A DNA stretch of 63,040 bases from the IMG/VR virus record IMGVR_UViG_3300031939_000001, positions 1 to 63,040 of that record. The stretch is one strand, 5' to 3'. Numbering within the stretch: the stretch's first letter is position 1; each line of letters starts with the position of its first letter. Positions 1,951 through 35,930 of the stretch are shown piece by piece. Both the position numbers and the translations under genes were made by a program. The notes under the pieces are model-generated. The model saw nothing but the letters and a program-made list of their open reading frames with translations. It made no database searches and was not told where the DNA came from. This DNA is from a virus (Duplodnaviria; Caudoviricetes).

Positions 1951-3350
1951 AGGGCGTCCTCCGGGGTGTCGATGAGCAGCCGCCAGCGGCGGACGTAGAG
2001 CTGGAACTCCCAGAGCAGCCCGGAGGCCTCGGCGAGGACGGCGTCGGCAGCGGGCAGGACGTCGTCGTCCAGCCAGCGCAGGAACGGCAGGCCCAGGTCG
2101 GTGAGCATCAGGCGGCCCGCAGGGTGGAGACGTGGCGGGCGACGTAGCGGCCGAAGGTGGCCACCGCGGCGTGCGCCTCGGGGTCGTGCGGGTGCAGCCA
2201 CCAGTAGCCCGACTCCGGCGCCGGCGACAGGCACCACCAGACGCCGGGTGGCACCGGGGCCTCGCTGCGCTCCTCGTCGGCGTTGGGCAGCACCCGGCAG
2301 CGGGCGCCCTGGCGCGGCTTCCACGAGGTCTTGATCTCGTCGCGGGCGCTCATCGGGTGGTCACCTCCGCGTGCCCGTAGAAGACGACGACGCGCAGCGG
2401 CCGGTAGGAGTGCTCCTCGATCGGGACGGGCTGCAGCAGGTCCTCATCCCGCTCCATCATCGAGACGGGCGACTCGGCGAGCCGGGCCACCTTGATCTCG
2501 GGCCACAGGCTTGGGATGCCCATGATCTGACTGTCGTTCGGGCCGCCGACCAGGCGCGCCTCGTAGTCGATCATCGGACCCTCTCCACGGTGACGGTGAC
2601 GACGGTGGGCTGGCCGGCGACCTTCCACGCCTCGCGGCTGATGGCCACGGCCATGTCGCGGTCGGCGCCGCCGAAGGATGCGGACTCCTCGTCGAGCCCG
2701 GCGATCGGCAGGGTGCGCTGGATCTTGAGGTCGCTCATCGCAGGGTCCTTCCGTGACGGGCCGCGCGGCGGGCGCGGGTGTTCATCAGCCGGGCCACGCG
2801 CTGCCGGCGGGCGCGGTCGACGGGGCGCTCGATCCAGAGGAACTTGATCGGGACGCCGAAGGCCTTGCCGATGGCCACCGTGAGGTTGCGCAGCTCGGCG
2901 GACGCCTCGCGGACGCGCGGGGTGAACCGGACGACGACGTCGTCGGGGAGGGTGCTCATCGGGACGCCAGCACCTCGGCGCGCAGCAGCCAGTGACCGGA
3001 GAAGGCGCCCGGGTAGGGGTGCGACTCCTGCTCGAGGACGAGGCGCGGCCAGGCGTCGAAGCGGCGACCGTTGAGGTGGGCCAGTCGGGCCAGCTCGGCG
3101 ATCTGCCGAGCCTCGAACTCGCGCAGCACGGCGCTCGGCGCGTCGCCGGGGCGCTGCAGCATGAAGGCGCTGACGAGCTGGTGGCTGGCCAGCTTGCGCG
3201 TGTCGCTCATCGGGTGACCTTCCGGGTCGGCCGGCGGTCGCAGACCGGGCACTCGTAGACGACTGGCAGCAGCGGCAGCGCGGCGTCGACCTTGCGGGCC
3301 TGCATCAGCCCCTTGCAGATGCCGCACTCGCGGCGCTCCTCGGTCACCAC
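1947..3350 (-). CDS. Run of small hypothetical genes (1947-2108, 2108-2353, 2350-2574, 2571-2738, 2735-2959, 2956-3210, 3207-3350 CxxC zinc ribbon)
   Basis: Chain of ATGA/GTGA-overlapping ORFs with GC3-rich codon usage. Confidence 0.65.
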
Positions 3351-3568
3351 AGGTCGGCCTCCGCGTCGATCGCGGCACGGACGAGGCAGTCCTTCGCCTC
3401 GAGCAGGTGGCGCAGCGCGGCCGAGAGCTCGGGGCCGTCGGGGAGCTGATTGACCAGGCCGTGCACGGTGTCGTGCACCGTGGCGCTGACCGTCTTGGGC
3501 AGCCCGTCGCGCAGGTGGTGGTAGTCGAACCACCGCAGCAGTTGCTCGGTGGCGGGGTGGCGGGTCAT
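3344..3568 (-). CDS. Small helical-hairpin protein, possibly Acb2/Tad1-like
   Basis: FDYHHL..LPDGPELSAALRHLLEAKDCLVRA pattern; family link from memory. Confidence 0.55.
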   Translation of the reverse strand: MTRHPATEQLLRWFDYHHLRDGLPKTVSATVHDTVHGLVNQLPDGPELSAALRHLLEAKDCLVRAAIDAEADLW

Positions 3569-4290
3569 GCGGCTTTCCCTTCGTGTTCTTGCTGTCGGAC
3601 GGCCAGGGCGAGGCGGACGAGGTCGCGCCCCTCCCAGCGGTGCGCCTGGTCGCGGTCGCACTCGACGGCCTGCACGCCACCGGCGGCGGTGTGGATGACC
3701 GGGCCGGTGTGCACGTCGGCGCGGACCGGCCAGAGGCGGCCGCCGCACTCGACGAGGTCTTCGTCCAGCCGCGGGCAGGTGCCGGGCAGCGGGCCGGGCT
3801 CGGCCGTGCCGTTGAGCGCCTGCAGTTGGGCGAGCAGGGTGTGGATCTGGTCGAAGCACAGGTCGATCCACGGCTGGGCGGCGACCCACTCCAACCGGCG
3901 GGAGAGCAGTCGGCACTCGGTGGTCACGTCGCGGGACGGCGGCGCGGTCATGTCGAAGGCGTCCCGGACGTTCTGCGCCCACCGGTGCAGCACGCCGAAG
4001 GCCGAGAGCCGGTCGTCCGCGCCGGACGCCGAGGTGACGTCGCCGGGGTCCACGTAGCGGGGGTCGCGGGCCACCACGGCGTCGATGCGGACCGGCGCCT
4101 TCGTGTTCTTCAGCCCGCCACCGCTGCCGCCGTCGCTGGTGGCCACGGCCATGGACTTGGCGGCGTCGACGTCGGCGAACTCCTCCTCCACCCGGATCAG
4201 TTCCTCGGCGAGCTGGTCGAGGTGGCGCCGGCAGATCGCCAGCCCCGCCTCGGCGCGGTGTGGTCGGCCGGGCAGCGCGCAGTCGCTCAC
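3565..4290 (-). CDS. Conserved actinophage Cys-rich hypothetical protein (possible transcription regulator)
   Basis: N-terminal C..H..C..H and C-terminal GTCP..CGGRL..VEC..H zinc motifs. Confidence 0.65.
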   Translation of the reverse strand: MSDCALPGRPHRAEAGLAICRRHLDQLAEELIRVEEEFADVDAAKSMAVATSDGGSGGGLKNTKAPVRIDAVVARDPRYVDPGDVTSASGADDRLSAFGVLHRWAQNVRDAFDMTAPPSRDVTTECRLLSRRLEWVAAQPWIDLCFDQIHTLLAQLQALNGTAEPGPLPGTCPRLDEDLVECGGRLWPVRADVHTGPVIHTAAGGVQAVECDRDQAHRWEGRDLVRLALAVRQQEHEGKAA

Positions 4291-9981: not shown

Positions 9982-10575
9982 TCACGCGGCCGCCTCGTCC
10001 CGGGCGCGGGCGCGGGCCCGGCGCTTGTACTCGGCGCGCGAGGCGTTGGCCGCCGCGCGGCAGGCCTCGTCCACCGGCTCGCCGTTGCGCTTGTGCCGCG
10101 CGGCGGCCGTGGCGGTGCCGCAGGGGGCGAGCGTGCGGCCCTTGCGGACCCTCCGGGCGCGGTTGTAGGCGCGGCGAGCCTCCAGGCACTCGCCGCAGAG
10201 GGCCTCGCCGCGGCGCTTGTGGCCCGACGCCCCGGCGATGGTGCCGCAGGTCGGGTACGCCGTCCGGGCGCGCACCGCCTTGACCAGCGAGCCGGGCGGC
10301 AGGTTGCGCAGCCCGACGGGCAGGGCGGGGTTGTCGCGCAGCGGCGGCGCCTCGCCGAACTTCGCGGCCAGCTTGCCCCGGCTGTACTCGTCGTCGAAGC
10401 CGACGAACCGGTTGCCCAGGTCGTACTCGCTACGGTCGTCCGGGGCCACGGCGTGGCCGGTCGGGTCGATCAGGCCGAGGGCGTCGAGCAGCTCGCGGCG
10501 CTCGGCGACCGGTAGCTCGAGGAGCGCGACCGCGCGGGCGGCCAGCCGGTTGACCGACCAGTCCCCGGTGCTCAC
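9982..10575 (-). CDS. Hypothetical protein with two CGT..H.R.GE..C zinc motifs
   Basis: Duplicated motif typical of actinophage DNA-binding proteins. Confidence 0.65.
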   Translation of the reverse strand: MSTGDWSVNRLAARAVALLELPVAERRELLDALGLIDPTGHAVAPDDRSEYDLGNRFVGFDDEYSRGKLAAKFGEAPPLRDNPALPVGLRNLPPGSLVKAVRARTAYPTCGTIAGASGHKRRGEALCGECLEARRAYNRARRVRKGRTLAPCGTATAAARHKRNGEPVDEACRAAANASRAEYKRRARARARDEAAA

Positions 10576-12317
10576 GCGGCGTCCTCGACACGGGCGAGCC
10601 GGGCGTCGATCAGCGGCAGGTAGTCGGCCTCGCGCTCGATGCCGATGACCTGGACGCCCTCGAGCACGGCGGCCTCGATGGTGGTGCCGGAACCGGCGAA
10701 CGGGTCGAGCACGACGGCGCCGGGCGCGGCGACCAGGCGGATGAGCCAGCGCATCAGCGCCAGCGGCTTCACCGTGGCGTGGACGATCCTGGTGCCGCTC
10801 TCGTCCACGTAGGACGGCCGCTCGCGCGTCGGCGCCTTCGCCACGTACTGGAAGACCGGGAAGAACCGGCTGGCGCCGCCCTGGTCGGCGTGGAACGCCG
10901 GCGCGCGGTCACCCATGCCCCGGAAGGCGCCCTCCATGCTGTCGGACTTGGACGCGCCGGAGTAGGTGGCGCCCGACGCTGGCGCCTTCGCCCCAGCCGC
11001 CGGTGCCTGCCGGTCCAGCTCGCCGACCGGGCAGCCCCCGGCGCAGGCCCAGACCGGTGCGGTCACGTCGGCGCCGACGAAGCCATCGCCGCGCTCGTAG
11101 CCGGAGACGAAGCCGCCGGAGGCCTTCGCGCCGCCGCCGACCCGCTCGGTCGCGGTGCCGACCTGCTCGCAGCCGTCGGCGTGGGTCAGCAGGACGTTGG
11201 TCGGCCAGCGACCCCCGGCCGAGGCCGAGCCGCCGCCGGGGTGCAGGTTGGTGTCGCCCTCGCGCTCGGCGCCACGGGTGCCCGCATGGCCCCGGTCGCC
11301 GGAGTGGTTGCGGGCGTAGTCGGCGTCGGCGACGGTCACTCGGGTGGCGTCGATGTTGAGCGCACCGGTGCCGTGGGCGAGCACGTTCGTGGCGACCGTG
11401 CCGACCAGTGGCTTGCGGCCGACCACGATCGGCTCGAACGCGGGCTTGAGCGCAGTGCCCCAGCCCTGCCAGTCGGCCGCCTCGTCGGCGCCGGGGGTGG
11501 CCTTGTCGATCGCCTTGGCGACGTCCATGGACTTGGGGAAGCCGGACCCGTAGAGCCAGGCGATCGAGTCGCGGATCTCGAAGCCGGCGTCCTCGATGGC
11601 GACGGCCAGGCGGTGCCAGGTGCGGGCGCCGCCGAAGGAGAGCAGGTGGCCGCCGGGCTTGAGCACGCGCAGACATTCGGCGGCCCACATGCGGCACCAG
11701 TCCTGGTAGCCGTCGCCGGACCATGGCGGGTCGACGTACTCGCGAGTGCGCTCGACCCGGGCCTTCAGGTCGGCCATCCGCGACCAGTCCGCGCGACCGG
11801 TCCAGCGATGGCCGCGCTTCATGTTGTTCCACTCCACGACGGCCTGGGCCCAGGGCTCGTAGTCGAGACGCTTCTTCGCCCGCAGGGGGTACTTGTCGAA
11901 CAACCGAACCAGTCGCAGACAGCCCGTCTTGTCGCCCACGGTGTAGGTGCTCTGAGGGTGCGCGTTGCCACTGCCGTCCCCGTCGTTGATGTGGCCGATG
12001 CCGCCGAGGAACCGCTGGATTCGCTCCAGCGTGCCGCGCTCGTCGCGACGGACCTTGATCGCGAAGGTGCAGGTGTAGGTGCCGCGCTCGTGGCGCTGGA
12101 CGCGGAAGCAGCCCTCGCCATCGACGAACCCGGCGAGCCAGTAGGCGAAGGCGGCGTCTTCGTCCTCGTTGTGGGTGTCCCACTCGCGGCCCATAAATCC
12201 GAGCGAGTAGGGCGGGTCGCAGACGATGGCGTCGATCGAGTTGTCGGCGAGCTCGCGCATGACGTCGAGGCAGTCGCCGTGGTGGATGGTGACCTGTTCG
12301 GAGGCGTGGTGGGGCAA
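10572..12317 (-). CDS. N6A/N4C DNA methyltransferase (beta class) with in-frame LAGLIDADG insertion
   Basis: GDCLDV, DPPY, RVLKPGG, HATVKP, LDPFAGSGTT; insert YWLAGFVDGEG; TTG start after GGAAAG. Confidence 0.88.
   Translation of the reverse strand: MPHHASEQVTIHHGDCLDVMRELADNSIDAIVCDPPYSLGFMGREWDTHNEDEDAAFAYWLAGFVDGEGCFRVQRHERGTYTCTFAIKVRRDERGTLERIQRFLGGIGHINDGDGSGNAHPQSTYTVGDKTGCLRLVRLFDKYPLRAKKRLDYEPWAQAVVEWNNMKRGHRWTGRADWSRMADLKARVERTREYVDPPWSGDGYQDWCRMWAAECLRVLKPGGHLLSFGGARTWHRLAVAIEDAGFEIRDSIAWLYGSGFPKSMDVAKAIDKATPGADEAADWQGWGTALKPAFEPIVVGRKPLVGTVATNVLAHGTGALNIDATRVTVADADYARNHSGDRGHAGTRGAEREGDTNLHPGGGSASAGGRWPTNVLLTHADGCEQVGTATERVGGGAKASGGFVSGYERGDGFVGADVTAPVWACAGGCPVGELDRQAPAAGAKAPASGATYSGASKSDSMEGAFRGMGDRAPAFHADQGGASRFFPVFQYVAKAPTRERPSYVDESGTRIVHATVKPLALMRWLIRLVAAPGAVVLDPFAGSGTTIEAAVLEGVQVIGIEREADYLPLIDARLARVEDAA
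11730..12170 (-). mobile_element. LAGLIDADG homing-endonuclease domain inside the methyltransferase ORF
   Basis: LAGFVDGEGCF..F.I..LERIQRFLGGIG..LFDKYPLRAKKRLDYEPW; more AT-rich codons than the flanks; boundaries approximate. Confidence 0.85.
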
Positions 12318-12408
12318 CGGTCGACTTTCCGCGAGGTGGTGGGTGGTGGTGCTGCCCGGTGCCGGGCGGGAGTGGTGGCGGCCAGGCCGCCCGGCACCGG
12401 GGCGAGGG

Positions 12409-12915
12409 TCAGGCCGCAGCAGCCTCGGCGGCCTTGCGCTGCAGCAGGGCCTGCACCTCCGGGGGGAGGCTGTCGAGGTTGGGGATCTGACCGGCGGTGA
12501 CGGCCGCCGGCGCGGCGGCCGGGGTGGGCTTGGCGAAGCCGCCGCCGAGGAACTCGGGGTTCGCACCGAGCCACGCCGTCGCCCGGGCCACGGCGGCGCC
12601 GTCGTTGTTGGCGGCCTCCAGCACCCACGGGGCGGTCTGGCCGGTCTTGGCCACGCCCTGGCCCATGCGGGCGAGGATCGGCTGGCCGCCGATCTTGTCC
12701 TTGGTGGCGCTGATCAGCGCGACGTTGAACCACAACGCCGAGCGGTAGACCTGGCCGGTGTCCACGTCGGCGAGGTCGACGGAGACGGCGTCGGAGACGC
12801 CCATCTTGGTGGGGATGTTCTCCCGGTACTCCTTGGGCACCACGATGAGCAGGTGGCCGGAGAGGTCCGCCGGCTTGGCGATGTCACCGGACAGGGTGGA
12901 GGGTGCGTCGAACAC
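12409..12915 (-). CDS. Conserved actinophage protein, possibly ssDNA-binding/recombination
   Basis: GAAAGGA RBS; beta-rich core with flexible Pro/Ala tail; near the exonuclease. Confidence 0.55.
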   Translation of the reverse strand: MFDAPSTLSGDIAKPADLSGHLLIVVPKEYRENIPTKMGVSDAVSVDLADVDTGQVYRSALWFNVALISATKDKIGGQPILARMGQGVAKTGQTAPWVLEAANNDGAAVARATAWLGANPEFLGGGFAKPTPAAAPAAVTAGQIPNLDSLPPEVQALLQRKAAEAAAA

Positions 12916-14329: not shown

Positions 14330-15099
14330 TGCTTCCCTTCCATGACGCCGGCGCAGCCCTCGGAGGCCGCCACCGAGCGATCGGTCGTGTAGTACGGGCA
14401 GAAACGGCAGCCGTCGGTGTCCCGCGGCAGCAGCCCGACGAAGTCATCGAGCGCGTCGAGGTGCTCGGCGACGTTCATCCCGACGACGAGGTCATCGAGG
14501 TCGCCGAGCGCCCCGTGGCAGACCGTGGGGTCGAAGTCCTCGGTCCAGATGTGGGTGTCGGCGAGGAAGCCGGTGCGCGGCAGGAAGACGATCGCGACCT
14601 TCTTGACCGGCTTGCCCTGGTTGGCCCAGCCGACGCCGTAGGTGTGAGCCTGGACCCGGTACTGCCTGCTCGGGCCCGCTGACCGGTACTTCTTCAGTGA
14701 CGAAGCGCCCACGACTTTCCAGTCGACGACGGTGTCGGATTCCAGGTCGTAGAGGTCGCAGGAACCGCGCAGGCCCTCGCGGATGGTGACCTTCTCCTCG
14801 AGCAGCCAGCGGACCGGCTGACCCGTCTTCTGGCGGCCGACGTTGTCGGCGGCGAACGCCTCCTCCAGCCAGGCGTGCACGGCGGTGCCGATGGTCGCGG
14901 CCCAGCGGTCACCCTTGTTGCGCTCGGGGGCGCCGAGCAGCTTGAGTGCGGTCTTCCGCCGGCAGCCGGCGCCGATCTCCGACGGGCCGATCTGTGTCTG
15001 CCGGGAGCGCGGTGCGTTCTCGGCGCTGCCGGTGATGACCGAGAGCAGCTGGCCCAGCAGCGGCGGCGGACCGGCCGGGGCGGCGAAGGCGACGCTCAC
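14326..15099 (-). CDS. Cas4-like PD-(D/E)XK exonuclease
   Basis: GPSEIG.C.R, GTAVH, GSCDL..VVDWK, Q...Y, CRFCPY..C. Confidence 0.88.
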   Translation of the reverse strand: MSVAFAAPAGPPPLLGQLLSVITGSAENAPRSRQTQIGPSEIGAGCRRKTALKLLGAPERNKGDRWAATIGTAVHAWLEEAFAADNVGRQKTGQPVRWLLEEKVTIREGLRGSCDLYDLESDTVVDWKVVGASSLKKYRSAGPSRQYRVQAHTYGVGWANQGKPVKKVAIVFLPRTGFLADTHIWTEDFDPTVCHGALGDLDDLVVGMNVAEHLDALDDFVGLLPRDTDGCRFCPYYTTDRSVAASEGCAGVMEGKQ

Positions 15100-16799
15100 C
15101 GGGTCACCGCCACCAGGACGGCGCGGGCCAGCAGCGGCGGGACGGCGTTGCCGATCTGCTGGAACTGTTTGGTCTTGGTCCCCTGCCACGGGTAGTCGCG
15201 CGGGAAGGACTGCAGGACGGCGGCCTCCTCCAAGGTGACCCGCACCGACCACTTCCCGAACTGCAGCGTCTTACCCCGGCCGGGGTGGCAGTCCTCGGTC
15301 ATGCACTTGTGGCCGGGCTGCCCAATGCGCGGGTCACCCTGCACTGTGGTGGCCGGGCGCTCGGCGACCCACTGCGGACGCTCGTGCCCGAAGGCCAGCG
15401 TGGCGGCGGGCTCGTCGAGGTCGCGCAGCGTGGAGTTGGGGCGCAGGTTGGTCGGGCAGAGCTGGACGTCGCCGGGCGCCGGACGCTCGCCCGCCGGGTG
15501 CACCTTCCAGGCGCTACCGGCCTTGCCGTCGACCGTCGGCGCCGGGGCGTCGATCGGCCGCTCGTACCCCTTGACGTGCTCCCGCCAGTCGGTGCCCTCG
15601 CGCTGCTCGGGGCCGATCAGGTGCTGGTTGGCGCCGGTGGAGACGACCCAGTCCACCGAGTTGAGCCGGGCGCCGAACATGACCGTCGGCGCGGGCTCGT
15701 CGGCGACCCGCACGCCGGCCTTCTCGTGGGTGCCGTTGACGTAGGTGACGTCCGCGCCCTCGGCGTAGGACTCGCCCGGGCCGGGGTTGGTGGAGTCCTG
15801 GCCGTACCACTTCTCGGGGTCGTCGATCCACGCGGCCGCGCCGCCACCGGCGATCGTCGGGGCGGGCTCGTCGCTCGGCCTGGGGCGACCGGCACCGCCG
15901 GCGCCGGCGCCGACCATCCAGACGTCGCCGCCCGGGGCCCAGCGTCCGGCTTCCAGTTCGCCGTAAATCTCGGCGCGGCCGCCGGAGCCGCCGACCTTCT
16001 CCTTGTCCGGGCCACCAGTGGACCGCGAGCACGCGATCGTCGGGTACGGCCGGGCGGTCATGCCCCAGCCGAGCGCCTCGGCCATCGAGACCCACGGGAT
16101 GAGCCCGTCCTCGGCGCCGGTGAACCGGCTCTTGCCCTTGGCGTAGGCGGTGTGCGTCGGCGCCGGCAGGGACGCCTCGGCGGCGCAGGCGCAGCCCATC
16201 GGGAGCCCGGCGTCGCAGTGGCCGCAGACCGTGCGCCGCTTGGCGACGAGGATGGCGCGCTTGCGGGTCTGCGGGACGCCGTACTGCTCGGCCGAGAGCT
16301 TGCCGGTGGCCACCGAGTAGCCCCAGTCGCGCAGCACCTCGGCGTAGGCCTCCCAGACCGGGAGGACGGCGGGCACCTGCTCCAGGGCGATCCAGTCGTA
16401 GCCGCCGAAGGCGAGGGCGTCGCGGATCCAGCGCAGCGGTTCCAGCACCAGGCCGGTGCGCTCGTCGGTGTAGACGCCGTAGTCGATCGCCTCGCCGTTG
16501 GCGACCTTCTTGAGCTCGAGGAGCACGGTGTCCAGCGCGAGGCGCCCGGCGCCCTTGCCGGCGGCCGAGAAGGTCTGGCACGGCGGGGAAGCGATCAGCC
16601 CGCGCGCCTCGGGGAACTCCTGCGGGTCGTAGTGGCGGATGTCGCCCTCGTAGGTGGACAGCCCGGCCGCCCGGCGGGTGGCGCAGGCGGCGGCGTCGAT
16701 CTCGATGCCGAGGACGTGCAGGCCGAGCTCGCGGGCGGCCACGTCCCAGCCGCCCGGCCCGGCGAAGAGGTCGACGGCGTCGACCAAGGAGACGCTCAC
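15096..16799 (-). CDS. C5-cytosine DNA methyltransferase
   Basis: DLFAGPGG, SPPCQ, EQV, QTRKR, QIGNAVPP. Confidence 0.93.
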   Translation of the reverse strand: MSVSLVDAVDLFAGPGGWDVAARELGLHVLGIEIDAAACATRRAAGLSTYEGDIRHYDPQEFPEARGLIASPPCQTFSAAGKGAGRLALDTVLLELKKVANGEAIDYGVYTDERTGLVLEPLRWIRDALAFGGYDWIALEQVPAVLPVWEAYAEVLRDWGYSVATGKLSAEQYGVPQTRKRAILVAKRRTVCGHCDAGLPMGCACAAEASLPAPTHTAYAKGKSRFTGAEDGLIPWVSMAEALGWGMTARPYPTIACSRSTGGPDKEKVGGSGGRAEIYGELEAGRWAPGGDVWMVGAGAGGAGRPRPSDEPAPTIAGGGAAAWIDDPEKWYGQDSTNPGPGESYAEGADVTYVNGTHEKAGVRVADEPAPTVMFGARLNSVDWVVSTGANQHLIGPEQREGTDWREHVKGYERPIDAPAPTVDGKAGSAWKVHPAGERPAPGDVQLCPTNLRPNSTLRDLDEPAATLAFGHERPQWVAERPATTVQGDPRIGQPGHKCMTEDCHPGRGKTLQFGKWSVRVTLEEAAVLQSFPRDYPWQGTKTKQFQQIGNAVPPLLARAVLVAVTR

Positions 16800-17152
16800 G
16801 CGGCCACCTCCGGGTCGCCGTAGCCGGAGCAGCGCAGCAGGTGGGTGGCGTCGGACAGGCGCAGCAGCACCAGCCAGTCGCCGACGGTGGTCTCGCCCTG
16901 GCCGTTGCAGCGGAAGACCACCAGCGGCAGCGCGCCGCCGGCGGTGGACTCGGCCTGCTTCACCCACGCCAGCGGGTTGAGGTCGGAGCGGGCCTTCACC
17001 TCGATCGCCAGGCCGGGGGTGCCGAGGATGTCGCGGCCGCCCCGGCCGGCGCCGGTGGGCTCGGCGAAGGGGAAGCCGCGCTCCTGCAGCCAGTCGGCGA
17101 CGACCTTCTGCGTGCGGTAGCCGCGGTGCTTGCGCGACTGGTTGGTGCTCAC
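16796..17152 (-). CDS. Holliday junction resolvase-like PD-(D/E)XK nuclease
   Basis: K.RG..Q..VA..L, DI..LAIEVKA, PLVV. Confidence 0.8.
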   Translation of the reverse strand: MSTNQSRKHRGYRTQKVVADWLQERGFPFAEPTGAGRGGRDILGTPGLAIEVKARSDLNPLAWVKQAESTAGGALPLVVFRCNGQGETTVGDWLVLLRLSDATHLLRCSGYGDPEVAA

Positions 17153-31865: not shown

Positions 31866-33080
31866 TCAGAGATGGTGCCGGAACTTCCACGCCTCGTAGG
31901 AGGCGGCCGCCTCGGTGGACTTCCGCCAGCTCCGGGGGTGGGCGGCGAAGCGGTCCATGTCGGCGAACGGGAAGTCGTCGAGCGGGGACCCCGGCGCCGG
32001 TGGGGGACCGGGCACCGGCGCCGGGGGGTCGGGGGGCGTCGGCACGGGGGCCGGCGCCGGGGGCGGCGGCGGGGTCGCGCCCCGCAGGCAGGCCAGCAGG
32101 GCGGCGCCGTTCACCACGCCCCACCCGGAGGCGTCGTCGCGCCCGGTGGAGGCGGGATAGGCGCCGTTGCTGCCGCCGGTGACGTCCCAGCAGACCTCCG
32201 GGTGCGCGGCGAGCACGGTGGGCAGGTCGAAGCGCGCGCCGCCGAGCGCCTCGAGCAGCAGCAGGTGCAGCCCGGCGTAGAGCGGCGCCACGGCCGAGGT
32301 GCCGCCGACGACGGCCGCCTGGCCGTCCACGATCACCCGGTAGCCGCTGTAGGGGTCGGCGTTGCCGGACACGTCGGGCACCTGGCGGCCGGCGAAGTGC
32401 GCCGAGACGCCGCCGCCGGTCGCCGAGTTCGGCCCGTCGTTCCACACCGTCTCGGCGGCCCGGGCGCCGTTGACGTCGAGCACCAGCCGGGTGCCGCCGC
32501 AGGCGACGACGTGCGGGCTGGACGCCGGGAAGTCGCAGTGCTTGCCGGACTCGCCGTCCCCGGAGCCCTGGTCGCCGGCGGCGCAGTAGACCGCGACGCC
32601 CTTGGCCTGGAGCTGGGCGAACAGCGCGTCGAACTGGTCGAGGGTGGCCGACGGCCAGGAGTCCTCGGGGCCGCCCCAGGAGATCGACACGACGTCGTTC
32701 TCGGCGCCGGCCTGGGCGATGGCGTCGTAGAATCCCTGGTCGGTGTTGGGCGCGAAGTAGACCCGGATGGTCGCGCCCGGGGCGACCGCGCCGGCCACCT
32801 CGATGTCGAGCAGCACCTCGCCGTCGGCGCCGTCCGGGCCGTCGGAGACCGGCTGGCCGCCGTCCACGCCGATCGAGGTGACCGACGGCTCGGGCAGGGC
32901 CTGCTGGGTGAAGTAGGCCCGAATGCTGGCCGGGTCCGCGGCGCCGCCGAGCTCGACGATGCCCAGCGAGTAGCCCTTGCCGGTGTAGGTCTCGGGGAAG
33001 CCGTAGGCGAGCGCGACCTGGCGCGCGGACAGCGGTGCGGTGGTGACGTGCGGGTAGCAGACGAACGGGCGCGCGGGCAC
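31866..33080 (-). CDS. Sedolisin/kumamolisin (S53) protease, catalytic domain only
   Basis: DGEVLLDIEV, ISISWG-like SISWG, AAGDQG, PASSPHV..GGT, GGTSAVAP, DVTGGSNG, G.D..SGWG. Confidence 0.88.
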   Translation of the reverse strand: MPARPFVCYPHVTTAPLSARQVALAYGFPETYTGKGYSLGIVELGGAADPASIRAYFTQQALPEPSVTSIGVDGGQPVSDGPDGADGEVLLDIEVAGAVAPGATIRVYFAPNTDQGFYDAIAQAGAENDVVSISWGGPEDSWPSATLDQFDALFAQLQAKGVAVYCAAGDQGSGDGESGKHCDFPASSPHVVACGGTRLVLDVNGARAAETVWNDGPNSATGGGVSAHFAGRQVPDVSGNADPYSGYRVIVDGQAAVVGGTSAVAPLYAGLHLLLLEALGGARFDLPTVLAAHPEVCWDVTGGSNGAYPASTGRDDASGWGVVNGAALLACLRGATPPPPPAPAPVPTPPDPPAPVPGPPPAPGSPLDDFPFADMDRFAAHPRSWRKSTEAAASYEAWKFRHHL

Positions 33081-33109
33081 GGCTCTCCTCTGTGGAGTGG
33101 TGAGGGGGG

Positions 33110-33139
33110 TTGGCGTTGCGTCGGGGGGCGCGCTACGGT
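33110..33139 (+). promoter_or_regulatory. SigA-like promoter for the CRISPR-repeat RNA
   Basis: TTGGCG-N18-TACGGT ending 5 nt before repeat 1. Confidence 0.55.
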
Positions 33140-33144
33140 CGGCG

Positions 33145-33246
33145 GCAGTCCCCGCACACGCGGGGGTGACTCGCAGCTTCGGCTGAGGATCGCAACGTCG
33201 AGATCGGGAGATCGAGACACGTCCCCGCTCACGCGGGGGTCCCTGC
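33145..33246 (+). CRISPR. Cas-less type I-E mini-array (repeat, 44-nt spacer, repeat)
   Basis: GCAGTCCCCGCACACGCGGGGGTGACTCG (33145-33173) and CACGTCCCCGCTCACGCGGGGGTCCCTGC (33218-33246) fit the 29-nt I-E layout N4-TCCCCGC-N4-GCGGGG-N8. Confidence 0.75.
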
Positions 33247-33280
33247 GGGGGCGGGACGCTCCGGTAGCGCCCGCCCCCGC
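33245..33280. terminator. Hairpin closing the mini-array and the late operon
   Basis: GCGGGGGCGGG..CCCGCCCCCGC inverted repeat. Confidence 0.65.
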
Positions 33281-33287
33281 CTCCGTG

Positions 33288-33748
33288 TCAGGGCAGCACG
33301 GGGGGCGTGAGCAGCCCGGCCACCTGGCCCTGCAGGGTTGCCACCTGCGACTGCAGGGTGGTGATGTCCTGACCCTGACTGGTCACGGTGGCCGACAGCG
33401 CGGTGACCGAGGCCGAGAGCTGGCCGAAGTTGGTCAGCACGGTCTGGGCGAAGTCGGCCGCCGTCTGGGAGAGCAGGCAGTTGGCCTGCAGCCAGAGCAG
33501 GTGGTTGGCCAGCGAGGTGATCGCGTCCAGCGCGGCCGCGGCGAGCGCGGCGTGCGCGGGGTCGGGGCTCGCGGCGAACTCGGCGAGGTCGGGCATTAGT
33601 ACCCCCTCGCCGCCCGGGCGGCCACGAGGTCCGCCCGGGCCTGCGCGACGGCGTCCTGGTCGACCGGATCGGCCTGCAGGAGCACCGCGAGCGCGCGCAT
33701 CGCGTCGATGACCGCCTGATCCAGCGCCGCCGGGTCGGGTGCGGTCAC
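33288..33748 (-). CDS. Two small late genes (33288-33596 coiled coil; 33596-33748)
   Basis: TAATG and GTGA overlaps after the holin. Confidence 0.6.
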
Positions 33749-33990
33749 ACCTGCTCCCGGTGTCGCCCCAGCGCCGCCGGCGTGAGGTCGCGGCCGACGG
33801 TGATGCTCGACAGCGACGTGCACACCGACAGCGCGGTGGCGCCGACCGCGAGCGACAGCGCCCCCAGCCAGTTGGTGTGCAGGACGTCGACCGGCGCCGA
33901 GGTCATCGTCAGGGCGGCGATGAGCGACTGCCCGAAGGTCTTGGCCGCTCGCTCGGCGGTGGCCGCCCAGAAGGCGCGGGACGTGAGCAC
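33745..33990 (-). CDS. Holin (r1t-like)
   Basis: FWAATAERAAKTFGQ..NWLGALS..ATALSVCTS. Confidence 0.85.
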   Translation of the reverse strand: MLTSRAFWAATAERAAKTFGQSLIAALTMTSAPVDVLHTNWLGALSLAVGATALSVCTSLSSITVGRDLTPAALGRHREQV

Positions 33991-34037
33991 GAGGGGGTGG
34001 ACTCCTTTCCGGTGGGAGGTGGGCTTAGTGGCAGCGA

Positions 34038-35930
34038 TCAGGCGACCAGGCCCTGCTGGATCAGCGCGGTGCGCAGGCTGTTCACCAGCGCCTGCGTGGT
34101 CGCCGCGTCCACGGCGGCGGCCGGCACCGACGCCACCTGCGTGCTGCCCCGCAGGACGGCGATCGAGGTGAAGTAGGCATTGTCCTGCGCGGTGACCATC
34201 AGCCCGGTGTTGCGGCTGCCGCCGATGGTGGCGTGCGACGTGGAGTCGTAGGTGGTCGACAGCGTCGCCAGCCGTGCCCCGGAGGAGTCGTACAGATCGG
34301 CCCTCAGCGCCTGCTGGTCGTAGGTGAAGGTGACCCGGAACCGGTCCCCGGCGACCGGGGTGAGCGGGGTGGTGGCCAGCACCGTGGCGGCGCCGCCGAT
34401 AATCAGCCGCACCCGGAACGAGGCGCTGGTGATCTCCGCGGCGAGCAGGTTGGAGGTGTCGACCGACCGGGCGATCACGGCCGCGCCGCCGCCGCCCTGG
34501 TAGGTGATGTCCGCCGAGGTCTGCCCGTTGTTGCCGACCGCCGCGGTCAGCGTCCGCCGGCCGCCGCCGGTGTTGGTGCACTGCAGCCCGGCCGCCGCCG
34601 CCGCCCAGGTGGCCCCAGACGAAGCGGTGTAGGTCTGCCCGGAGTCTGCGGCGAGCGCGTTCCCGCCGGAGCGCAGCCCCGAGTCGTTGACCACGGTGCG
34701 GTAGCTGGACGGGGTGCGGGTGCCGGTGACCACGTCGCGCAGCGCCTGGGCGCTCAGCACGTAGCCGAGGCTGGTCGGCAGCTGCGACGGCCGGGTGGAG
34801 GGCATCTGCACCACGGAGGCCAGGTACACGTCCTGCGCGATGTTCGACGACGGCAGAGAGATCGGGGACGCGGCGAACGCCGCGAGGCCGAGGTTGTCGT
34901 AGTCGTAGTGCGCGCTGTAGCCGCACACCACGCCGGAGACGACGACGTTCTGGTGCTGTCCGTAGCCGCGCGGGACCGGGTCGAAGAAGATGTCCGCGCT
35001 GGTCGCGGGGGCGGCCATGCCGTTGCACTGCGCGACCCAGGACGAGCCCACCGAGTTGCGCAGGCTGACCGCGTGGATCCCGTCGAGGCCGTTGCGGGCG
35101 GCGACCAGGCCGTGGAAGTTCCCCGAGTGCAGGTTGTCCAGGAAGATGCCGTACTGGCCGTTACCCCAGGCGTGCAGGTTGGTGTACGTCGACTCGGAGT
35201 GGTCGAGGTGGATGCCGTGCCTGCCGTTGTTCCGGCCGCGCAGGTTGGAGCCGACGACCTCCCGGTAGCCCGACTTGATCCAGATGCCGTCCTGGGCGTT
35301 GTCGTGGCCGTACAGGTTGTCGGCGAGCAGCACCCGGACGGTGTCGGAGCCGGAGCCGCCGGAGAGGACCCCCTCGAGGTAGAAGCCGTTGCCGGCGACG
35401 TTCGCCGCCTCCAGGTCGTGGATGCGGGAGCCGGTGCAGCGGATGGTGTGCAGCCCGTACCGGCTAGAGACGCCCTCGAGCGCCTTGCTGCCGAGCATCG
35501 TGAAGTTGTCGATCTCGATGCCGCTGTTGCCATTGGTCTGGTCGGCGTTCTGGATGATCGCGGCCAGCCCGGCGACGGTCTGGTTCAGCACGGTGCGACC
35601 CGGTCCGGCGCCGGTCAGCCGCACATTGTCGGGCACGGTAATGGTGGCGGTGACGGTGTAGGTGCCGGGGAGCAGCTCAACGGCGCCGCCGCCGTTGGCG
35701 GCCAGGTCGTTGATGGCGGCCTGGATTCCGGCGTCGGTGAAGGTGGTCACCACCCGTCGGCTGTCGCCGACCGGCACCAGGCCCGCCGTGAGCGCGGCCG
35801 GGAGGTTGGTCGAGTCGAACTCGCTGACCGGGTCGGCCGAGGCGGTGGAGTGCTTGGCGCGGGCGCGGGCGACGGGGTCGGTGCCATCCTCCCGAATGAG
35901 CTGACCACCCGGGTCGCTGAGGTCGGTCAC
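34038..35930 (-). CDS. Tailspike/depolymerase with right-handed beta-helix
   Basis: AGIQAAIN..GGGAVELLPGTY..LTGAG, repeated N..DGI strands. Confidence 0.78.
   Translation of the reverse strand: MTDLSDPGGQLIREDGTDPVARARAKHSTASADPVSEFDSTNLPAALTAGLVPVGDSRRVVTTFTDAGIQAAINDLAANGGGAVELLPGTYTVTATITVPDNVRLTGAGPGRTVLNQTVAGLAAIIQNADQTNGNSGIEIDNFTMLGSKALEGVSSRYGLHTIRCTGSRIHDLEAANVAGNGFYLEGVLSGGSGSDTVRVLLADNLYGHDNAQDGIWIKSGYREVVGSNLRGRNNGRHGIHLDHSESTYTNLHAWGNGQYGIFLDNLHSGNFHGLVAARNGLDGIHAVSLRNSVGSSWVAQCNGMAAPATSADIFFDPVPRGYGQHQNVVVSGVVCGYSAHYDYDNLGLAAFAASPISLPSSNIAQDVYLASVVQMPSTRPSQLPTSLGYVLSAQALRDVVTGTRTPSSYRTVVNDSGLRSGGNALAADSGQTYTASSGATWAAAAAGLQCTNTGGGRRTLTAAVGNNGQTSADITYQGGGGAAVIARSVDTSNLLAAEITSASFRVRLIIGGAATVLATTPLTPVAGDRFRVTFTYDQQALRADLYDSSGARLATLSTTYDSTSHATIGGSRNTGLMVTAQDNAYFTSIAVLRGSTQVASVPAAAVDAATTQALVNSLRTALIQQGLVA

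Follow-up and report, generated by a model that had tools for sequence, protein, structure and literature searches.

A pair of type I-E CRISPR repeats between late genes of a tailed phage: most likely a small-RNA gene that uses host Cas proteins

What use could a phage without cas genes make of two type I-E CRISPR repeats, set between its late genes with 44 nucleotides (nt) between them? The question is raised by IMG/VR virus record IMGVR_UViG_3300031939_000001 (Duplodnaviria; Caudoviricetes), a tailed-phage sequence of 63,040 bp and ~72% G+C, the whole of which (63,040 nt) was analysed and is called the window below. Neither Cas6e, Cas7e, Cse1 nor Cas3_HD has a match in this record, which is estimated to be 77% complete, in agreement with a first-pass annotation of the same DNA that had seen no cas operon. 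Since the phage has no cas genes, an RNA made from the repeat unit could act only through the type I-E proteins of its host. We argue here that, most likely, a small RNA is encoded in this unit by the phage and works with these proteins; a guide-type role for its RNA, by analogy with the viral Cracr arrays compared at the end of this text, appears to us about evenly poised between true and false.

The two units contain 20-nt cores (33148-33167 and 33221-33240) that are 19/20 identical (95%) at a spacing of 73. True repetition is limited to these cores: the units differ from each other in the 3 nt that precede and the 6 nt that follow, and the 44 nt between them occupy 33174-33217. The window has two occurrences of the stem CCCCGC-N4-GCGGGG, each in the unit; shuffles lead to an expectation of 0.12 occurrences, and none of 100 shuffles held at least two such stems. 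Coordinates and cores confirm what the first-pass annotation had described, namely an I-E-type repeat, a 44-nt spacer and a second repeat with an intact stem.

When the genomes of 185,579 species were scanned for the 20-nt core (loop ACAC or TCAC), 87 loci emerged; many are arrays of 4-66 copies with a period of 61 nt, from Streptomyces, Micromonospora, Streptoalloteichus, Goodfellowiella, Actinocorallia and uncultured Actinomycetes. The comparison of the repeats with actinobacterial arrays, which had been proposed as a check, yielded identity: the core equals, letter for letter, the core of I-E array repeats in many Actinomycetes genomes. Over its full length, unit 1 agrees with array repeats at 26 of 29 positions at best (in L109; comparison loci bear such L numbers) and typically at 23-24, with 20 of the 29 positions fixed by the search pattern and the flanks contributing weak support. 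Its tail GTGACTCG fits the tail pattern of the arrays, including the C at the seventh place and the final G; the tail of unit 2 falls outside that pattern, a misfit that is common for a last repeat. The stem-loop repeats of a canonical I-E array are present, and its 32-33-nt spacer and linked cas genes are absent, the period being 61-62 in real arrays and 73 here. Judged from the sequence, the unit is a copy of an I-E repeat and more than a G+C-rich hairpin, and its plus-strand orientation is suggested by the repeat flanks, by comparison with the E. coli I-E repeat, by the array of locus L144, which points away from cas3, and by analogy with other phage arrays.

The same architecture recurs in other phage contigs. 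Scans of IMG/VR for the 20-nt core with any loop (78 loci) and for widely spaced stem pairs (19 loci) were pooled into 44 distinct clusters of 2-6 I-E-type stems, the present unit included. In 20 of the 44 clusters the first stem is preceded, at a distance of 7-20 nt, by the end of a TAnnnT box, compared with 658 of 19,200 random positions in the same loci (3.4%). Similarly, 26 of 43 clusters (one was left out because it had too little downstream sequence) have a 50-nt stretch folding at -25 kcal/mol or lower no more than 100 nt beyond their last stem, a figure to which degenerate further repeats may add, compared with 19% of 576 random stretches. The present unit has both, with TACGGT 10 nt before the stem and a downstream hairpin of -35.7 kcal/mol. 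Spacings in the clusters are often other than 61: values of 49-50 are frequent, 41, 43, 47, 64, 66, 67 and 74 occur, and 73 is found in the present unit and in L302. The idea that spacing proceeds in 6-nt steps (43, 49, 61, 73) was dropped, because 41, 47, 50, 52, 56, 59, 64, 66, 67 and 74 also occur.

Two other kinds of element came to light. Six IMG/VR loci (L287, L289, L291, L295, L298 and L300) hold two CCCCGC/GCGGGG hairpins in inverted, palindromic arrangement 64-77 nt apart, with complementary flanks (...GGGGatcca at one end, tggatCCCC... at the other) and with GAAA-type loops on one side and TTTC-type loops on the other; this element is distinct from the mini-arrays. In addition, a prophage of Actinopolyspora xinjiangensis (L142, ~3350-3800, the same as viral locus L079) carries an array of five I-E-like pseudo-repeats with three different stems, preceded by a TACTGT box and followed by a terminator; GTGTTTGACGA, with a -35-like TTGACG inside it, is common to two of its inter-repeat segments.

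The segment between the repeats bears on the function of the unit. According to the first-pass annotation this segment consists of a 12-nt hairpin with a TTCG loop and exactly 32 nt. The 32-mer, however, opens with a motif that recurs in other phages, and so it is no free spacer: within its first 12 nt lies the 11-mer GGATCGCAACG (33187-33197), which is also present in L041, in its relative L265, in L047 and in L290, that is, at the same place in three otherwise unrelated phage lineages (four contigs). In the alignment of the window with these four loci the 11-mer is invariant, and it always directly follows a hairpin, 21-23 nt after the end of the I-E stem; in L041, L265, L047 and L290 its place is the final inter-repeat of an I-E mini-array borne by a phage. 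The preceding hairpin is a clear repeat-like stem, CTCCGC-N4-GCGGAG, abutting the I-E hairpin before it in L041, L265 and L047, and a 4-bp stem in the window and in L290, the TTCG hairpin of the window aligning with the second repeat-like hairpin of the former three. Elsewhere in 1.81 Mb of loci GGATCGCAACG occurs once, in L075, away from any repeat, and in all of IMG/VR, with the window's own record excluded, the motif followed by an I-E-type stem within 4-34 nt is found only in L290, L041 and L265.

In a blastn search of the window against five comparator loci, for which the E-value is not database-wide, the sole match joins 33147-33200 to L041 (57 columns, 79% identity), and L041 and L047 have only their units in common by the same method. 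A profile built from the alignment of the five units retrieved no further members from 332 loci, only generic array units. What these comparisons reveal is a putative short RNA module that is common to unrelated phages, by transfer or by copying of a common host element.

The inter-repeat segment varies between phage arrays. Its whole length is 44 nt here and in L302, 45 nt in L303 and in L288, where a 13-nt duplication accounts for the extra length, and 37 nt in L290, so that the "exactly 32 nt" after the hairpin loses its special standing among phage arrays, in some of which the inter-repeats measure 45 nt. Nor does the composite of hairpin and 32-mer look like a special design, the 44-mer folding no better (-9.6 kcal/mol) than its shuffles (-10.3 +/- 2.6 kcal/mol, z = +0.25). 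These features bear on the possibility that the unit is a one-spacer mini-array directed against rival phages or plasmids, or what is left after recombination with an array of the host. Mini-arrays on viruses, with related viruses as their targets, have been described (PMC6858448; this and the other publications cited here were available to us in part), and the tail of repeat 2 is decayed, as in a terminal array repeat. A 44-nt inter-repeat is nevertheless unlike the 32-33 nt inserted by I-E adaptation, no protospacer was found in GenBank phages, in the phage itself or in the examined viral loci, and a stretch of the "spacer" has been conserved among unrelated phages, as acquired spacers are not. 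We therefore consider this explanation very unlikely.

The repeat-like stems abutting the I-E hairpins also suggested a mimic of two systems, in which the hairpin followed by GGATCGCAAC would be a type I-C-like repeat. This candidate was rejected: the CTCCGC/GCGGAG stems of L041 and L047 recur in L053 with ordinary I-E tails and a 60-61-nt spacing, and the failure to find arrays with the tail GTGGATCGCAAC in a sample of 401 Actinomycetes genomes likewise weighs against it.

Two ways of parsing the segment may be considered. In the first, which is that of the first-pass annotation, the handle GTGACTCG would be followed by 44 nt, with the conserved motif beginning at position 13. In the second, which we tentatively prefer, the middle hairpin would be a decayed pseudo-repeat, GGATCG the rest of its handle, and the guide would begin at CAACG and measure 24-25 nt, with CAACG as putative seed positions 1-5. 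The position after CAACG, the sixth, differs in three of the four lineages. Type I-E Cascade leaves position 6 unpaired, and the coincidence of the variable position with the unpaired one is suggestive, resting as it does on four lineages only. An unpaired position 6 is stated also for type I-F1 (PMC10120712), and the guides of host CreR/CreA RNAs measure 23-27 nt (bioRxiv 10.1101/2024.10.29.618823), a range that includes the length obtained with the preferred parsing. Under either parsing, the conservation of the inter-repeat segment argues for a sequence-specific role, that of a guide, over that of a pure decoy.

Starting from the observed sequence, repeat identity, common architecture and conserved motif, we infer the following scheme, in which the transcribed strand, the processing by Cas6e, the loading into Cascade and the target are the conditional steps. 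Positions 33134-33280 would be a small non-coding RNA gene on the plus strand, antisense to the late genes and copying the repeat of the host's I-E system. Transcription would start from the TACGGT box and stop at the hairpin at 33245-33280. The two hairpins of the transcript would be bound and cut by host Cas6e, releasing an RNA of ~73 nt that resembles a CRISPR RNA (crRNA) and consists of an 8-nt handle, 44 nt and a 21-nt hairpin, in which GGAUCG and CAACG would be the pseudo-handle and the seed of the guide. Cascade would then be guided, as a non-cleaving complex, to a site conserved in hosts, for instance the promoter of cas genes or of a toxin that guards CRISPR. Besides, the RNA would compete for Cas proteins with the crRNAs of the host.

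A wider version of this scheme, which we put forward as a speculation that is rather unlikely to be right, would see a horizontally shared module of actinobacterial phages, composed of an I-E hairpin, an abutting pseudo-repeat hairpin and GGAUCG-CAACG as a universal pseudo-handle plus seed that parks Cascade on one conserved site of I-E systems or guardian genes; the inter-repeat length would set an unusual number of Cas7 subunits that helps to avoid Cas3 recruitment or a partner anti-CRISPR. To our knowledge, over-long crRNAs have so far been known only from engineered constructs, and such a module, if real, would represent a natural use of them.

A possible pairing partner of the motif lies within the unit itself. 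The putative -35 region holds GCGTTGCG at 33113-33120, complementary to CGCAACG(T) in the conserved motif (33190-33197), and the plus-strand minimum-energy fold pairs the two; this pairing may be due to chance or may serve self-regulation.

Several observations weigh against a guide-type small-RNA gene. A simple consensus scan called no sigma-70 promoter and no terminator at the unit, Rfam gave no CRISPR-DR match and nothing relevant at the locus, the middle hairpin has just 4 bp, and the pseudo-handle is one nt shorter than in L041 and L047. Moreover, the stem is its own reverse complement, and a minus-strand late transcript has the same stems with other loops and flanks. Some of this would be expected if the unit were instead a cis structure on the minus-strand transcript of the late operon (a terminator, an attenuator or a determinant of RNA stability) whose likeness to I-E repeats is coincidental: both flanking genes lie on the minus strand, the antisense RNA retains the same stems and folds slightly better than shuffles (z = -2.2, compared with z = -1.5 for the plus strand), and the scan called neither promoter nor terminator. 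Coincidence is difficult to reconcile, however, with an exact 20-nt match to real I-E array repeats that occurs twice, and with the same architecture and a homologous 57-nt stretch in unrelated phage contigs. Among loci with relatives of the neighbouring peptidase gene (7 in IMG/VR and the best 80 of 542 in metagenomes, all with at most 52% identity), no such unit stands upstream in any of the 87, and 2 of the 80 metagenome loci each hold one lone stem; this absence speaks against a cis structure of the operon as well as against the small-RNA gene. On balance a cis structure seems to us quite unlikely.

The searches for a target count on the same side. At up to 3 mismatches the 32-mer matches only itself in the phage, which bears out the first-pass statement that it has no self-match and leaves no self-target; the best other ungapped match is 20/32, with shuffles giving a mean of 19.7 and a maximum of 23. 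In 50,697 GenBank phage records there was no significant match (all E values at least 3e-1, coverage at most 59%), and no target was found in 165 loci with I-E repeats or upstream of cas8e in 30 Actinomycetes loci. The proposed comparison of the spacer with phages and cas promoters was hence carried out and returned no match in GenBank phages or in the 30 cas8e loci. A match of the spacer-like part to a CreR/CreA element or to a cas or toxin promoter was found neither in these 30 loci nor in the 87 array loci. Hits combining seed and protospacer-adjacent motif were at chance level (11 seen, ~13 expected); one of them, non-significant, lies 118 nt before cas8e in L324. For the Actinopolyspora prophage array, whose host is known, the Cracr idea found no match within 1.5 kb upstream of the host cas8e.

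Searches for the host had a similar outcome. The major capsid protein has just 2 distant hits (32-35% identity) in 401 genomes of the phylum, and the host was not found. Among the spacers of the examined arrays none matches the phage, with nothing beyond chance-level hits of 27 nt or less, and GenBank phages gave no match to the locus and one weak 29-nt hit to the unit.

The negative target searches are in favour of a pure decoy, in which Cas6e and Cas7 would be bound in aberrant or oversized complexes and titrated from crRNAs, the 44 nt taking about two extra Cas7 per RNA, and which requires no target: none was found in the phage, in GenBank phages, in I-E loci or in cas8e upstream regions. 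Repeat identity and architecture fit a decoy equally well; furthermore, type I-E Racrs, which are such RNAs, have been experimentally shown, and a non-targeting crRNA also lowered interference (PMC10651486). Yet a decoy needs no conserved inter-repeat sequence, and here an 11-13-nt motif has been kept across unrelated phage contigs; Racr candidates are, besides, defined as solitary repeats (PMC10651486), whereas the present unit has two. We regard a pure decoy as rather unlikely.

A rejected candidate from these searches concerns cas8e itself. Positions 33188-33199 of the window are identical over 12 nt to L315 at ~2005 (minus orientation), inside cas8e; with ~0.5 such identities expected, the match was judged to be due to chance. 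It falls in the conserved SGIKSGAVGD..VKGG region of Cas8e and arises from an unusual D-R-N, a site that reads D-P-R in 6 of the 9 cas8e loci in which the motif pattern matched.

The cas8e loci gave rise to an observation in its own right. Of 30 loci from sampled Actinomycetes genomes (L304-L333), 9 have a solitary I-E-like hairpin in the 1.5 kb upstream of cas8e, in most of the 9 reading as an array repeat on the strand opposite cas8e, which is in line with the CreR-type elements as far as they are described in PMC10120712; none of the 9 hairpins has the conserved motif.

The features of the unit and its flanking genes are compiled in Table 1. Both promoter-like hexamers of the first-pass annotation, TTGGCG-N18-TACGGT, were found at their positions, and the terminator-like hairpin that it had described does have perfect arms of 11 nt; it lacks a T-run after 33245-33280, and no terminator was called there. 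This hairpin is likely to be the terminator of the small RNA and possibly also that of the late operon arriving from the other side. The imperfect hairpin at 33197..33218 is only partly present in computed folds and contains GATCG twice, with a third GATCG at 33188.

Table 1. Features of the repeat unit and of the adjacent genes (positions in the window)
Feature	Position	Strand	Remarks
-35-like hexamer TTGGCG	33110..33115	+	weak, putative; 4/6 consensus positions; missed by promoter scan
-10-like hexamer TACGGT	33134..33139	+	18 nt after TTGGCG; ends 10 nt ahead of first stem
Repeat unit 1, 29 nt by I-E convention	33145..33173	+	stem CCCCGC/GCGGGG, loop ACAC, 8-nt tail GTGACTCG
4-bp hairpin, TTCG loop	33174..33185	+	direct reading; in centroid fold
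Conserved motif GAGGATCGCAACG	33185..33197	+	13 nt common with L290; last 11 nt with L041, L265, L047
Second imperfect hairpin, variable part	33197..33218	+	3 bp, 2x2 internal loop, 4 bp, loop GGGA
Repeat unit 2	33218..33246	+	same stem, loop TCAC, diverged tail merging into next hairpin
Strong hairpin, 11-bp perfect arms (33245-33255/33270-33280)	33245..33280	either	best 50-nt fold -35.7 kcal/mol
Flanking gene, 102 aa	33288..33596	minus	coiled-coil-like, weak tail-protein match
Flanking gene, 404 aa	31866..33080	minus	S8/S53 (kumamolisin-like) peptidase, GAGGAG ahead of GTG start

The unit sits in the 207 nt that separate the stop of the 102-aa gene from the GTG at which the peptidase gene starts. 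The gene order is that of a tailed phage, mostly on the minus strand: terminase, portal, protease, major head protein, tape measure and tail proteins are followed by an Rv2525c-like endolysin, a beta-helix tail-spike-like protein, two small proteins, the S8/S53 peptidase and, further on, ParA. In some relatives of the peptidase (P0011, P0014) a phage holin domain (PF16945) is fused in front, which suggests a role of the peptidase in lysis. The phage also encodes two large DNA methyltransferases (10572-12566 and 15096-16967), and GATCG occurs three times in a 27-nt part of the inter-repeat segment (33188, 33202, 33210).

An identical peptidase (100%) is present on a second contig, and another relative is 77% identical. 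Positions 32815-34400 reappear without change in contigs from two runs on soil metagenomes that belong to separate studies (X1, X2), and the phage genotype is thus a recurrent one, with the limitation that X1 may be the source sample. The sequencing runs listed for the locus comprise 4 of DNA and 0 of RNA; in runs X3 and X4 positions 33053-33214 were not covered, and the runs yielded no variants of the unit.

Why would such an RNA matter? RNA anti-CRISPRs are a recent discovery, and in the portions of the literature available to us the experimentally tested ones work in E. coli or in hosts that are Gram-negative. With a clear I-E example from a soil phage of high G+C, their range widens to the Actinomycetota, in which I-E systems are common, cas8e being present in 45 of the 401 sampled genomes; S. 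avermitilis, for one, has an active I-E system (PMC4762764). The conserved GGATCGCAACG offers a concrete handle for finding the targets of such RNAs. If the target proves to be a cas promoter or a guardian gene, the unit would represent a small switch of natural origin that turns actinobacterial I-E systems off, of use in phage work and in engineering the genomes of Streptomyces-like bacteria; should it act purely as a decoy, a known class would gain one more member.

The first-pass annotation, which knew of no described example of this design, had named a decoy and a non-cleaving guide as possible functions. Both belong to the right families of ideas, and both are covered by published systems, namely by Racr RNAs (PMC10651486) and Cracr arrays (10.1101/2024.10.29.618823), so that the design cannot be called undescribed. 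Racr RNAs include two of type I-E, RacrIE1 and RacrIE2, which inhibit the I-E system (PMC10651486, Camara-Wilpert et al. 2023). Like the present unit, a Racr is a repeat mimic in a viral intergenic region with no cas genes; in the accessible description a promoter lies within 250 bp upstream of a Racr, and here a -10-like box lies 10 nt upstream, a placement enriched among the phage clusters, and the consensus scan called no promoter. Unlike the unit, with its two full hairpins and its conserved inter-repeat motif, Racrs are single repeats unlinked to others.

Closer in architecture are the viral Cracr arrays, of which 20 are of type I-E, with Actinomycetota among the hosts (Liu et al., bioRxiv 10.1101/2024.10.29.618823); for a prophage I-E array of this kind, Cas-dependent cutting and repression of casA are reported in the same source. 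As in the present case, these arrays are phage-borne and cas-less, enclose a spacer-like sequence between repeat-like units, possess their own promoter and terminator (promoter-like and terminator-like flanks in the unit), and display non-canonical spacer lengths and a decayed last repeat. Indeed, the unit reads repeat-like, spacer-like, repeat-like in a virus and outside any cas locus. Cracrs are, however, defined by similarity to host CreR/CreA with at least 9 PAM-proximal matches, and no such element or target was found for the unit. Their pseudo-spacers measure 21-24 nt in the tested I-E array and 17-21 nt in viral I-F arrays, as far as that preprint was accessible, compared with 44 nt here, or ~24-25 nt if the middle hairpin is counted as a pseudo-repeat.

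Host CreR/CreA-like mini-arrays in I-E loci likewise consist of two repeat-like units, the distal one degenerate, around a spacer of 20-60 bp (Shmakov et al. 2023, PMC10120712); they display a partial, seed-weighted match to the cas8 promoter, and copies occur in some phages. In contrast to the unit, which lies outside any cas locus, they are located inside cas loci, between cas3 and cas8. Finally, E. coli Cascade takes up engineered crRNAs whose spacers exceed 32 nt, and the enlarged complex still binds and silences (Luo et al. 2016, PMC5009729; Songailiene et al. 2019, PMC6859484). Those are laboratory constructs, whereas the long inter-repeat of the unit is natural and its loading into Cascade conjectural. 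The long inter-repeat, the abutting pseudo-repeat and the conserved GGATCGCAACG were not found in the published descriptions as far as these were available, and may be contained in their supplementary tables. Taken together, these analogies suggest that the unit most likely belongs to a known kind of phage counter-defence, the repeat-mimic small RNA.

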